Shown here piece by piece: positions 22,436 through 62,443 of a stretch of DNA of 64,000 bases. Source of the stretch: Candidatus Aenigmatarchaeota archaeon (GTDB taxonomy: Archaea; Aenigmatarchaeota; Aenigmatarchaeia; PWEA01); assembly GCA_046539325.1 (NCBI GenBank), contig JBKHHD010000002.1:32001-96000 (forward strand), read 5' to 3'. Each line of letters begins with the position of its first letter. The first letter of the stretch is position 1. The translations under genes were made by a program, and so were the position numbers. Under the pieces are notes generated by a model. It made no database searches. It was not told where the DNA came from and saw only the letters and a program-made list of their open reading frames with translations.

Positions 22436-23905
22436 TGTAGTTGGTGTGACGCGAGGACTAGTTTACTCTCTTACCAATTCCGGTTGATCCTGCCGGAGGC
22501 TACCGCTATCGGGATTCGATTTAGCCATGCGAGCCGAGGGTGGTTTATCCGCCCGGCGGACTGCTCAGTAACACGTAGTCAACCTCCCCTCAGGACGAGT
22601 ATAACCCCGGGAAACTGGGACTAATACTCGATAGGAAAGGGATACTGGAATGTTCCCTTTCTGAAATGTTCCGACGCCTGAGGATGGGACTGCGGTGGAT
22701 TAGGTCGTTGGGGGTGTAACGGACCTCCAAGCCTATAATCCATACGGGCGTTGAGAGACGGAGCCCGGAGACGGACTCTGAGACACGAGTCCGGGCCCTA
22801 CGGGGCGCAGCAGGCACGAAACTTTTACAATGCGTGAAAGCGCGATAAAGGGATCCCGAGCGCCTTGGCATTGCCAAGGCTTTTTTGGAGTGTAAAAAGC
22901 TCCACGAATAAGGGGTGGGAAAAACGGGTGCCAGCCGCCGCGGTAATACCCGTGCCCCAAGTGGTGACCACGATTATTGGGCCTAAAGCGTCCGTAGCCG
23001 GCCGGATGGGTCCTCAGTGAAATCCTGCGCTAAAACGTAGGACTTGCCGGGGAAACTATTCGGCTTGGGACCGGGAGAGGTCGGGGCTATTCCTGGGGTA
23101 GCGGTAAAATGCTGTAATCCCAGGAAGAGCGCCTGTGGCGAAAGCGCCCGGCTGGAACGGCTCCGACGGTGAGGGACGAAAGCCAGGGTAGCGAAGGGGA
23201 TTAGATACCCCCGTAGTCCAGGCCGTTAACGATGCCCGTTTGGTGTAGCATCTCCTACGTGGAGGCGCTGTGCCGTAGCGTAGGTGTTAAGCGGGCCGCC
23301 TGGGGAGTACGTCCGCAAGGATGAAACTTAAGGGAATTGGCGGGGAAGCACCACAAGCGGTGGAGGCTGCGGTTTAATTGGATTCAACGCCAGGAACGTT
23401 ACCAGCGCTGACAGCATGATGACGGTCCGCTTGAAGAGCGTACCTGAAGCGCTGAGAGGTGTTGCATGGCCATCGTCAGCTCGTACTGTGAAGCGTCCGG
23501 TTAAGTCCGGTAACGAGCAAGACCCACATCCCTAGTTGCTATCGTGTCCTTCGGGACGCGAGCACTCTAGGGAGACCGCCTCCGACAAGGGGGAGGAAGG
23601 TGTGGGCGACGGTAGGTCTGTATGGCCCGAATGCGCTGGGCTACACGCGGCCTACAATGGTCGGGGCAGCGGGTTGCGACTCCGAGAGGAGGAGCTAATC
23701 CCAAAACCCGGCCTTAGTTCGAATCGAGGGCTGAAACCCGCCCTCGTGAAGCCGGAATCGCTAGTAAGCGAGGGTCACTATCTCTCGCTGAATACGTCCC
23801 TGCTTCTTACACACACCGCCCGTCAAGCCATCCGAGTGGAGCCTTGATGAGGCTTGGGAAATTTTCTCAGGTCTAATCAGGGCTCCGCAAGGAGGGCTAA
23901 GTCGT

Positions 23906-24719
23906 AAATTAATTGCGACCTCGGACCGAAAGGTTCGAGAAAACCCGGCTGTATGCTGGAAACTCCACTCATACCAGGCTGCCGGAATTGTCCTAAGCTT
24001 TTTATCAAAAGCACGGGCAATGTAAGGTAGAGAGGTCTGGTCGTTGTGGACAATCAGCAGGGAAGCTCACTACTCTGACCTGAAAAGGTGAGGTATAGCC
24101 CCTCAGAGACTGCACGCCGGCCCCTAACGGAGCTGATTGGATGTCACAAAGCTACCTCAAGGGAATACTTCACGATGCCACGGAAAGGAAGTACACCTAC
24201 CGAATTTCACAAAAGAACAAAGATTTCATTGAAAAGCTGGCCGAAATGATTCGAGATCTGGGCAAAAAAGCCTGGATTTAAGAAGAAGGCAACCGAGGAA
24301 TATACGTAGTGGAATTTAGTAAGAGTGGTCTCAAAAAGCAAGAAATCGAAACAAGACAAGAAAAAAGAGACTATATCCGTGGCTACTTCGACGCTGAAGG
24401 AAGCGTTCCAAGGAGTCCTGAAGTGCGACCTTACATTTACTTCGCACAACAGGACAAAAAAGACCTAAAGAAAGTGAAGAAATTCATTGAGGAGTTTTAA
24501 ATTGAAACAGGCAAACTCCACAGACCCAGTAAGGAGTCTGATCCAGATTACTGGAGATTTTACATCTCCACAAAGGATCACAAAAAATTTGCCAGAGAAA
24601 TAGGCTCTTGGCATCCAAAGAAAAATCAGCTGCTGAGGGAGATGAGACAGTCCACGCCTCGATGCGAGTCGGGGTGACACTTTCAAAGTGTCCGAACACC
24701 ATTATGGTGTGAGCATGTG
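23906..24719 (+). mobile_element. Group I intron at 16S position 1498 (E. coli numbering)
   Basis: Exon ends in U and intron ends in G. P1 GUCGU/GCGAC with a U.G pair. Core elements: P TATGCTGGAAA, Q AATCAGCAG, R TCAGAGACTG, S GAGACAGTCC. Confidence 0.92.
24141..24677 (+). pseudogene. Intron-encoded LAGLIDADG homing endonuclease with two in-frame stops
   Basis: YLKGILHDA and YIRGYFDAEG motifs; TAA at 24279-81 and 24498-500 in an otherwise continuous frame. Confidence 0.85.
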
Positions 24720-24760
<41 letters not shown>

Positions 24761-24809
24761 AATTCATACCAACTACAGGCTAAAATTTCGGGTTTCCTAA
24801 AGAACATAC

Positions 24810-25018
24810 GGGCCCGTGGTCTAATGGCAATGCAGAACCGTGTTCCGATTTACGGTTTGCACCGGAATGACGTCGCCCTTGCAAGGCGAAGACTGTGGGT
24901 TCAAAAGAGACCACTTTGGAATGAAAACACTTTACTGAAAACGGAGTTTTCGTAAAGATCCAAGCTTCGTTTGAAATATTTTCCAAAGGGTTTTCTGGAA
25001 TTCCCACCGGGTCCACCA
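24810..25018 (+). tRNA. tRNA-Ala(TGC) with two non-canonical introns (21/22: 24830-24867; 59/60: 24906-25001), encoded CCA
   Basis: GGGCCCG/CGGGTCC acceptor; TCGCC-CTTGCAA-GGCGA. BHB-like junctions (TTCA/TGGA with AAA and ATT bulges) restore TTCAAAT. Confidence 0.88.
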
Positions 25019-25210
25019 GTACTGTTCGCGATTTTAGAAAGTTTTAAATAACTTCACTGTTACAGGACTTTTGAACCTGATACAGGCCTGATAAGATGAC
25101 TGGAAAGTAAGACTTGAAGGATTAGTTGCTTACTTCAGTCTGTTCTTTTTCGTTTTGTTGTATAGTTTTAATGTGCAGCTCTCTACCGCAGGTAGAGGGT
25201 GAAGAGTGAT

Positions 25211-25290
25211 AAGGGACGATGAATTGAGTTTTGTGAACACCCTTTGATCCCGAGAGGGAGATGATAGTAAGACGATCACAAGAGTCCCTT
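25211..25290 (+). ncRNA. Two-guide box C/D sRNA in the 16S-23S spacer, predicted targets 23S U2552 and U1920
   Basis: AAGGGAC/GTCCCTT terminal stem; C ATGAATT, D' TTGA, C' ATGATAG, D AAGA. Guides are complementary over 11 nt to 28002-28012 and 27367-27377. Confidence 0.8.
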
Positions 25291-25391
25291 GGATGAGCTG
25301 TTATACGTCAAGTCTTGGAAACTTATGTTTCCAGTTTGAAATCCGAGAGGATTTCAAGACCCACCAGCCAACTAGGCTGGAATGGGTCTAT

Positions 25392-28347
<2,956 letters not shown>

Positions 28348-28492
28348 CATGGACGCATTCCAGCCTGGGCTAAAGGTGGATCTTGAAATCAAGGAACACA
28401 AACTTAGAAACAGAGGTTTCCAAGACTTGGCGTATAGCAGCTGAAGCTCTTTTCTCATAAGATTTAAATTGTTAGAATCAAATGTTCCTACT

Positions 28493-28946
28493 GTGGTGAG
28501 CTGGAGAGGGACCACCGGGATAGTTTGGATGAGGTTGTTTTCCTTCACAGGAAACACCCTTGTATTCCCGGAGGAAGCTCCTCCCACCCGTTGTGCTGTA
28601 AAAGTGCAACGAGGCCCAGGCTCGCAAGAGTCCGTCCTGAGAGGGAACGGAACAGGGAACAGAAACGATACCCCCGCGCTGGAGCGTTGAAAGCTGAGAA
28701 GGCACGGAGGGATGGAACGTACCCTGATCTGGGTGGTGCAAGACCAAATAGGCTCCGGGAAATGGATGTGCCTTGCACGTCGGTCTCTTGGAGCGGGTAG
28801 GTCGCTATTTGGAGTCCGTGAGGGCTTCAAACTTGGAAGCATCTGCTTCCGAGAAGATGAATGTCCCGAAGACCTGACATGGACGCGGACTTCGTCCACG
28901 TCGTTTTTGGGTCCGAACAGAAGGAGGGCTACTCCCAGCACACCAC
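28493..28946 (+). ncRNA. rnpB: RNase P RNA
   Basis: P1 GTGGTG..GCTGG/CCAGC..CACCAC, CR-I GAGGAAGCTCCTCCCACC, AACAGAAAC, GGTGCAAG, CR-V AACAGAAGGAGGGCTA; TTTAAA promoter at 28463. Confidence 0.9.
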
Positions 28947-41047: not shown

Positions 41048-41189
41048 GCCGGGGTAGCGAAGCCAGGTCCACCGCGCCAGCTTGGAGCTTTCGACTGAAA
41101 AGCTGGTGGGCGTCAAGGGGCCAAAGGACGTAGTCGAAGACTACGTCGTTCCAACGAAGCCCGCGTGGGTTCAAATCCCACCCCCGGCG
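41048..41189 (+). tRNA. tRNA-Ser(GGA) with introns at 37/38 (41088-41100) and in the variable arm (about 41117-41158)
   Basis: GCCGGGG/CCCCGGC acceptor; CCAGC-TTGGAG|A-GCTGG; BHB TTGG/CTGA. Spliced variable arm GGGC-GTCAA-GCCC. Confidence 0.88.
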
Positions 41190-61822: not shown

Positions 61823-61938
61823 GGCTGGCGGCCAAAGCGGAGGGGCAACTCCCGTACCCATCCGAACACGGAAGAAAAGTCCTCCAGCGATTTGGTCAGT
61901 ATCCTCAATCCGAGGAGAACTCCAGGACGCTGCCAGCC
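61823..61938 (+). rRNA. rrf: 5S rRNA (unlinked from 16S-23S)
   Basis: GGCTGGCGGC/GCTGCCAGCC stem; CCCGTACCCATCCGAACACGGAAG. Confidence 0.92.
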
Positions 61939-62323: not shown

Positions 62324-62443
62324 GGGTCCGTAGCTCAGCCTGGCAGAGCACTGGGCTTTTAACTTAATATGTTAAAAGAGCTAGACGTTATGTCGATGAT
62401 GAAAGAAACCCAGGAGTCGCGGGTTCAAATCCCGTCGGACCCA
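62324..62443 (+). tRNA. tRNA-Lys(TTT) with 37/38 intron (62362-62407)
   Basis: GGGTCCG/CGGACCC acceptor; CTGGG-CTTTTA|A-CCCAG; BHB CTTT/AAAG. Confidence 0.92.

Follow-up and report, generated by a model that had tools for sequence, protein, structure and literature searches.

Box C/D guide RNAs are known as free-standing or intron-borne genes that act in trans. One such guide, in an archaeal pre-tRNA(Trp) (tRNA, transfer RNA), lies in an intron that is cut out by the splicing endonuclease, and action in cis is possible there. Kink-turn (K-turn) motifs of the L7Ae-binding type also occur in archaeal spacers of precursor ribosomal RNA (pre-rRNA), next to processing stems; to our knowledge, antisense guides have not been reported in them. 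Here we describe an 80-nucleotide (nt) element at positions 25211-25290 of a 64,000-nt stretch of DNA from an Aenigmatarchaeota archaeon (G000:C2:32001-96000; hereafter the window). The archaeal genome that it comes from, G000, comprises 715 kb in 10 contigs with a rated completeness of 91%. An earlier note on this DNA had proposed that the rRNA spacer encodes a two-guide C/D RNA directed at U2552 in the A loop and at position 1920 in helix 69 of the 23S rRNA on the same transcript. Our analysis supports this proposal: at a rough probability of 0.8, the element is a double-guide box C/D small RNA (sRNA) gene in the 16S-tRNA(Ala)-23S spacer, where it would branch off from the outer end of the 23S processing stem. 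Its outer junction (25206-25209 with 25292-25298) fits the kind of spacer K-turn described above, but the element differs in carrying antisense guides.

Both of its target nucleotides have protein-only methyltransferases elsewhere, namely RlmE/RrmJ/FtsJ for Um2552 and TlyA, which is assigned to position 1920, for Cm1920. The RNA would act on the same nucleotides; it differs from these enzymes in kind, and we found no FtsJ-domain gene in G000. The closest described relatives of the element are the archaeal double-guide C/D sRNAs. As these appear in the accessible parts of PMC4644070 and PMC3608112, the element shares with them two K-turn motifs, two antisense spacers (modal length 12 nt), the fifth-base rule for target choice, targets in 23S hot spots, and genes for the three core proteins. 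It differs from them in four respects: (i) it lies inside an rRNA spacer, fused to the 23S processing stem, rather than in a gene of its own; (ii) its boxes are degenerate and, in G000, one spacer is 18 nt long; (iii) its C'/D' motif is a full K-turn with a covarying hairpin rather than a K-loop; and (iv) it is apparently the sole recognizable rRNA guide in its genome.

The two target sites have a record in other organisms. In the portion of PMC4644070 available to us, helix 69 is a methylation hot spot, and five of the analysed archaea have U2552 among their predicted C/D targets. According to the accessible text of PMC2584109, Haloarcula 23S rRNA has just three ribose methylations, Gm1909, Um2552, and Gm2553, all in these same two helices, and Haloferax has an RrmJ homologue for Um2552. 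The same text gives the guide snR52 for the U2552 equivalent of yeast cytoplasmic ribosomes, Um2921, alongside RlmE/RrmJ in bacteria and Mrm2 in mitochondria. As with snR52, an RNA guide would do the job of RlmE/RrmJ/Mrm2; unlike the element, snR52 is a eukaryotic small nucleolar RNA with its own gene outside the pre-rRNA. The C/D guide in the archaeal pre-tRNA(Trp) intron, mentioned in the accessible parts of PMC7994747 and PMC2584109, is similar in that it sits within the precursor of the molecule that it modifies, so that action in cis is possible. However, that guide is an excised intron with a tRNA target, whereas the element belongs to a spacer and has its 23S targets 2.1-2.8 kb downstream. 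A literature search found no account of an archaeal rRNA spacer that carries a C/D guide, subscription journals and supplements being beyond its reach.

All of the motifs, coordinates, and base pairings listed in the earlier note are present in the sequence. The parts of the element, its surroundings in the precursor, and its targets are as follows.

25201-25209, + strand: outer junction, 5' side; GAAGAGU (predicted partner of the 23S trailer) followed by GA beside the terminal stem, non-bulged strand
25210-25217, + strand: terminal stem, 5' strand (C stem of the C/D K-turn); pairs with 25284-25291
25218-25225, + strand: box C region; 3-nt bulge GAU, sheared GA 25221-25222, then AUU
25219-25225, + strand: box C as read in the earlier note, ATGAATT
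25226-25243, + strand: C-to-D' spacer, 18 nt, which holds the D' guide
25233-25243, + strand: antisense 1 (D' guide), GTGAACACCCT, antisense to the A loop
25244-25247, + strand: box D', TTGA
25248-25259, + strand: hairpin TCCC-GAGA-GGGA, which closes the internal C'/D' K-turn
25260-25267, + strand: box C' region; bulge GAU, sheared GA 25263-25264, then UAG
25261-25267, + strand: box C', ATGATAG
25268-25279, + strand: D guide and C'-to-D spacer, 12 nt; antisense 2, TAAGACGATCAC, antisense to the helix 69 3' strand
25280-25283, + strand: box D, AAGA
25284-25291, + strand: terminal stem, 3' strand; pairs with 25210-25217
25292-25300, + strand: outer junction, 3' side; GAU-GA-GCUG, bulged strand, runs into the processing stem
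25296-25398, + strand: 5' strand of the 23S processing stem; complementary to 28342-28443
27367-27377, + strand: target 2, the 3' strand of 23S helix 69; T27370 is position 1920
28002-28012, + strand: target 1, A loop of the 23S rRNA (helix 92); T28006 corresponds to U2552
28342-28452, + strand: 23S processing stem, 3' strand, plus the trailer segment predicted to pair with 25201-25207

The core of the terminal stem joins AAGGGAC (25211-25217) to GTCCCTT (25284-25290) in the 7 base pairs (bp) that the earlier note describes, and U25210-G25291 adds an eighth. Beyond this 8-bp stem comes the bulge G25218-A-U25220, after which G25221-A25222 stand opposite G25282-A25283, followed by A.A and U-A; this is the geometry of a C/D K-turn, with its GAU bulge and GA opposite GA. 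The internal C'/D' motif is likewise complete, with UUGA, a hairpin, AUGAUAG, and a stem II of U.U and A-U. Its hairpin stem pairs 25248-25251 with 25256-25259 under a GAGA loop, the bulge is G25260-A-U25262, the sheared G25263-A25264 face G25246-A25247, U25265 lies opposite U25245, and A25266 pairs with U25244. Stem II departs from the RUGAUGA/CUGA consensus in both motifs; judging from the sequence, these departures are compensated, by U-A in place of G-C in the terminal motif and by U.U plus A-U in the internal one. No Rfam covariance model matched within 25211-25290, even at E values up to 10.

Both guides pair with the 23S rRNA as had been claimed. The D' guide (25233-25243) forms 10 Watson-Crick pairs and one G-U pair with 28002-28012, which places A25239, the fifth base before D', on T28006. 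The D guide (25268-25278) forms 11 Watson-Crick pairs with 27367-27377, with A25275, the fifth base before D, on T27370. Alignment to the annotated Escherichia coli 23S copy places 27370 at position 1920, which is C in E. coli. Position 28006 aligns to the U of GGCUGUUCG, position 2551 of the 2903-nt E. coli copy; we take this U to be the one that carries the standard name U2552. The guides also fit the bases at which this 23S departs from E. coli, as the earlier note had observed: G1918, U1920, C1921, G2551, and A2557 are all covered. At 11 pairs each, the guides exceed the roughly 9 nt of antisense expected of an archaeal C/D sRNA, and each target faces the fifth base before D or D', as expected. 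When random 12-mers of spacer composition were compared with the 16S, 23S, and 5S rRNAs, 36 of 5000 (0.7%) reached a run of at least 11 over position 5; both guides reach a run of 11.

We searched for relatives of the element with two covariance models, R1, built from G000, G001, and G006, and R2, built from 19 sequences, in an even sample of 151 genomes of the class and a sample of 151 genomes of the phylum. The congeners G001 and G006 carry the element in spacers of 84% identity. R1 matched directly 5' of the 23S gene in these two, in G000, and in G010, G011, G014, G016, G018, and G021 (E 4.6e-30 to 5.5e-8); the last six, which are not congeners and belong to two other families of the order, scored E 1.7e-14 to 5.5e-8. 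The element is therefore present in 9 of the 10 genomes of the order with an assembled spacer-23S junction, a count that leaves out weak R1 matches elsewhere in G007, G008, and G009. R1 found it in 20/151 genomes of the class sample, including 8 of 12 in family f19, 2 of 3 in f9, and 1 of 2 in f25; R2 found it in 17/151 genomes of the phylum sample and added f23. One further copy, in G028 (f13), was found by a regular expression (regex). Among genomes of other orders with an assembled 23S 5' end, 3 of 12 have the element.

Two of the spacers examined have features of their own. Some 240 nt 5' of its 23S gene, G013, the tenth genome of the order (locus L054), has GTGAATACCC followed by AAGA; compared by eye, the register is that of the D' guide. 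This segment would pair with the A loop, with one G-U adjoining the target; a large insertion follows it, and there is no helix 69 antisense. It is possibly a diverged copy overlooked by both models. The f19 copy L081 (G074:C20:40291-40363) has two bases between D' and C' (ATGA-AA-ATGATGA), which is a classical K-loop, unlike the hairpin-closed K-turn of the window.

The two helices of the element covary, as the earlier note had suggested checking in related operons. In an alignment of 19 sequences, 95.3% of 193 cells form standard pairs, and 11 of the 12 pairs have changed on both sides. Compensatory changes occur in 7 of 8 pairs of the terminal helix and in all 4 pairs of the internal hairpin, where 98% of cells are paired. 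None of 500 shuffles reached the covariation score, and sliding the partner by 1-3 columns lowers pairing to 38-52%. Compensatory changes in both helices are already visible in a three-genome MAFFT alignment. The 80-nt element is real.

What is conserved in the alignment is the TGA of box C, the GAACACC core, the TGA of box D', the ATGA of box C', and the GA of box D; the stems drift. The TGA of box C is present in 18 of 19 relatives, G045 being the exception. Both the D' antisense core, GAACACC, and the TGA of D' are invariant (19/19 each), always separated by 2 nt plus one variable box base. The GA of box D aligns in 18/19 copies, adjoining the terminal stem, and the first two bases of D vary; G021 has a consensus CUGA shifted by one base from this register, which leaves the target base of its D guide uncertain. 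The C-to-D' spacer is 12 nt long in 11 of 19 copies, 13-14 nt in 6, and 18 nt in G000 alone, with one copy unparsed, and the C'-to-D spacer is 12 nt in 12 of 19. The modal length, 12 nt, is the archaeal length.

We compared each guide with the 23S rRNA of its own genome. The D' guide pairs with its A loop over 8-11 contiguous bases, with position 5 on the U, in 13/13 genomes whose A loop lies in the fetched DNA. We describe this as co-conservation, because GGTGTTC, the core of the A loop, does not vary either. Two clades show covariation at the second base before D', with C-G in the genus of the window and U-A in f19. The D guide forms 10-11 pairs with its own helix 69 in 8 of 16 genomes (G000, G001, G010, G011, G014, G016, G021, and G135) and 8 pairs in two more (G079 and G084). 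Among these ten, the guide base opposite position 1920 is A with U in seven (G000, G001, G010, G011, G014, G016, and G021) and G with C in three (G079, G084, and G135), so that the D guide partly follows its target. In some relatives the D guide has been lost or has decayed.

The 23S alignment breaks a few bases after helix 69, following GGTAGCGTAA or GTCTTAA, in G018 (L052), G045 and G114 (L073 and L074), and G013 (L054), which suggests introns next to the D-guide target. In G018, G045, and G114 the break coincides with a D guide that does not match helix 69.

In the precursor, the processing stem starts 5 nt after the element ends, and a long helix with the 23S trailer likewise begins just after the element in G001, G006, G011, G014, and G084. 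A co-fold of G000 predicts, for this genome alone, pairing of 25201-25207 with 28446-28452, which would make the element one branch of a three-way junction. Minimum free energy folds were used for the long processing helix only, as such folds cannot model K-turns. The outer junction has a third K-turn-like motif (GA 25208-25209 with GAU-GA 25292-25296), and most relatives have flanking words of the form GGGTYGA on the 5' side and ATGAGAC or ATGAGCT on the 3' side. The earlier note had taken this motif for a weaker K-turn with a 7-nt match of its own. The conserved junction motif stands; a third guide does not, as 88% of random 12-mers reach 7 and the match is not kept outside the genus. That candidate guide, GGGTGAA against 28008-28014, has its position 5 on the C2556 equivalent, yet was rejected as a match at chance level with an antisense unconserved outside the genus. 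We read the outer junction as a putative further L7Ae-type motif, not as a guide.

Genes for the proteins of a C/D small ribonucleoprotein (sRNP) are present in G000: fibrillarin (273 bits) lies next to Nop5 (202 bits) on contig 2, contig 1 carries L7Ae (107 bits), and all three score above their Pfam cut-offs. Fibrillarin is found in 148/151 genomes of the class sample. A profile search for FtsJ/RlmE detected no such domain in G000, at 91% completeness, while all 14 control genomes scored; the search of the genome for rlmE that the earlier note had proposed thus came back negative. The FtsJ profile matched 133/151 genomes of the class sample, mostly through weak partial Rossmann-fold matches, and for this reason there is no usable contrast between presence of FtsJ and presence of the element. 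Only 2/151 have a full-length FtsJ, G058 and G075, and G010 scores 66 bits over half the model. The suggestion that the RNA may replace RlmE is therefore consistent with the data. The parallel suggestion that it replaces TlyA has no basis beyond the shared position, and nothing suggests that the lineage ever had TlyA. The two full-length FtsJ/RlmE-like genes (G058:C78:2408-2953 and G075:C49:3490-4035; 187 and 200 bits) come from one genus of f12, a family in which the spacer guide was not found.

We also scanned G000 for other guides. A regex for canonical double C/D RNAs had 0 matches genome-wide, and a half-motif scan with 9-nt rRNA antisense gave 48 matches genome-wide versus 46-51 in shuffles. 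A relaxed grammar of two K-turns gave 10 matches with a run of at least 9 across the genome versus 4, 4, and 4 in shuffles, and the spacer element was the only one with both guides at 10 or more. The Rfam model RF00095 had no match in the genome; this model is weak, with 0/14 controls above its cut-off. No second convincing rRNA C/D guide was found in the genome by these scans, which were made without tRNA targets or single-guide RNAs.

The mechanism that we infer, from protein binding through methylation and action in cis to a route of release, builds on what was observed directly: the anatomy, its conservation, the covariation of the helices, guide conservation with partial guide-target covariation, the protein genes, and the lack of a detectable FtsJ domain. 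The element would be transcribed ahead of the 23S rRNA, and L7Ae would bind both K-turns, the terminal C/D motif and the internal C'/D' motif closed by its GNRA hairpin. Nop5 and fibrillarin would then join, so that the sRNP assembles on the nascent spacer. Pairing of the D' guide with the A loop would bring fibrillarin to the ribose of the U2552 equivalent (28006), and pairing of the D guide with the 3' strand of helix 69 would bring it to position 1920 (27370). The same nascent transcript is the probable substrate, perhaps with later action in trans after release, as the sRNP would be freed or trimmed during spacer processing. In this way, a lineage that has no enzyme of the RlmE type would obtain the near-universal methylation of the A loop from the guide.

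The interpretation of the element as a two-guide C/D RNA for A-loop U2552 and helix 69 position 1920 is supported by its conserved place, the covariation, the boxes, the 12-nt modal spacers, the invariant core, the base switch at 1920, and the sRNP genes. Several observations weigh against it. Box C, AUGAAUU, has three mismatches to RUGAUGA, with its 3' half departing, and box D, AAGA, has two to CUGA. A 6-nt insertion in G000 lengthens the C-to-D' spacer to 18 nt, next to a C'-to-D spacer of 12 nt, and the accessible part of the review PMC3608112 calls a spacing of 10-12 nt essential for archaeal sRNPs. The second position upstream of D' is mismatched in f3 and f4. The D guide is unpaired with helix 69 in 6/16 genomes (G006, G018, G045, G114, G123, and G143), and in the congener G006 two mismatches lie in the middle of the guide, of which one falls on the target base. 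The pair counts come from an alignment that was fitted to the model, a procedure that favours the structure, and each compensatory change is probably a single event. The element is absent from most families of the class by R1 in the class sample and by R2 in the phylum sample; these families also lack RlmE, so that the guide is not the sole answer to RlmE loss. In the other 9 of the 12 genomes from other orders (f7, f10, f12, f14, and f17), no such antisense lies within 1.5 kb upstream of the 23S gene. A pattern search for an A-loop guide elsewhere in five of these genomes, from f7, f10, f12, f14, and f17, revealed no C/D-like copy; its five matches resemble coding sequence rather than a C/D RNA.

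We considered three other explanations. A chance resemblance, in which a spacer hairpin happens to contain TGA and GA words and to match the rRNA by accident, could draw on how common such words are and on the single 9-nt matches, which occur genome-wide at the shuffled rate (48 versus 46-51). Chance is refuted in practice: the element is conserved across families, its helices covary, its antisense core is invariant, and the joint probability of both matches counts against it. We give this explanation almost no credence. The element might instead be a K-turn and antisense chaperone that acts in cis without methylation, with L7Ae at the base of the processing stem and the two arms transiently holding the A loop and helix 69, thereby ordering 23S folding or timing spacer cleavage. 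Its place at the outer end of the processing stem, at a junction with a third K-turn-like motif, would suit such a role, as would the degenerate boxes, a D guide that is dispensable in 6/16 genomes, and an 18-nt spacer that would disfavour catalysis under the spacing rule in the accessible part of PMC3608112. We nevertheless consider this unlikely: the distance from the core to D' is invariant in 19/19 copies and puts position 5 exactly on a universally methylated U, the 12-nt modal spacers are the ruler of a methylating sRNP, and fibrillarin and Nop5 are kept though no other guide was found. Finally, the family could be a real guide of which the G000 copy is decaying, its 6-nt insertion and weak boxes having inactivated one or both guides. 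G000 is alone among 19 in its 18-nt C-to-D' spacer, and its boxes C and D are the least consensus-like of the set. On the other hand, both G000 arms are the best of the compared genomes at 11 pairs each, all GA dinucleotides and both stems are intact, the stem II changes are compensated, and G000 has no RlmE to take over. Decay of the G000 copy is, in our view, quite improbable, and we retain the functional double-guide sRNA as the preferred explanation.

The rRNA operon around the element was annotated as follows; the tRNA lies in the 16S-23S spacer.

24810-25018: tRNA-Ala(UGC), interrupted by two insertions; has a G3-U70 pair, and its CCA is encoded
25387-28352: 23S rRNA (basis: Rfam)
28496-28943: RNase P RNA (basis: Rfam)
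61824-61938: 5S rRNA (basis: Rfam)

The 3' end of the Rfam 16S match (22477-23950) is wrongly placed. The true 16S 3' end is at 24760, terminating in GGATCACCTCC, and an 814-nt insert (23906-24719) splits the gene near its 3' end, after AGTCGT (23905) and before AACAAGG. The insert matches the group I intron model RF00028 at 30.6 bits (E 1.6e-5), under the Rfam gathering score, and contains a broken LAGLIDADG_3 frame, with in-frame TAA codons at 24279-24281 and 24498-24500. The congeners G001 and G006 have 16S genes without it. Group I introns in archaeal rRNA genes are already on record in the accessible part of PMC6125680. Because of this group-I-like intron and the 16S end at 24760, the gap between the Rfam 16S and 23S matches (23951-25386) is partly not spacer, and the true spacer is 24761-25386.

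One insertion of the spacer tRNA-Ala is in the D-loop region (about 24827-24868), the other in the T-loop region (about 24905-25000). Neither ARAGORN nor Rfam detected this tRNA on the intact sequence; after removal of both insertions in silico, ARAGORN called tRNA-Ala for 3927 of 35,280 boundary combinations. The G001 tRNA-Ala has no insert in its D loop but one adjoining the anticodon; the insert sites thus differ between G000 and G001, and intron positions therefore turn over within the genus. Two Rfam tRNA matches elsewhere in the window, 41048-41189 (142 nt) and 62324-62443 (120 nt), have no ARAGORN call and probably represent additional tRNA genes with introns. On the same strand as the 23S gene and 144 nt 3' of it, the RNase P RNA gene has a score of 85.7 against an Rfam gathering score of 84 and is possibly part of the rRNA transcription unit.

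If the double-guide interpretation is right, a conserved spacer guide fused to a processing stem would be for rRNA what the intron guide is for tRNA(Trp), and would offer a natural system in which the modification, folding, and processing of one transcript can be studied jointly. The natural variants with 12-nt and 18-nt spacers lend themselves to a test of the spacing rule, and many metagenome-assembled genomes can be annotated for this RNA with the covariance model. The minimal set of two guide sites, A loop and helix 69, mirrors the sole ribose methylations found in halophile 23S rRNA. A more far-reaching proposal is that the element is the only rRNA methylation guide of the organism, that fibrillarin, Nop5, and L7Ae are kept in a 0.7-Mb genome for this one RNA, and that it methylates the A loop and helix 69 in cis from the foot of the processing stem, coupling modification to processing and replacing RlmE across several families of small-genome archaea; we offer this tentatively and regard it as doubtful in its full form. 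The element is one explanation of why reduced archaeal genomes keep the whole C/D machinery, and a working guide would show how near-universal A-loop methylation persists without RlmE.

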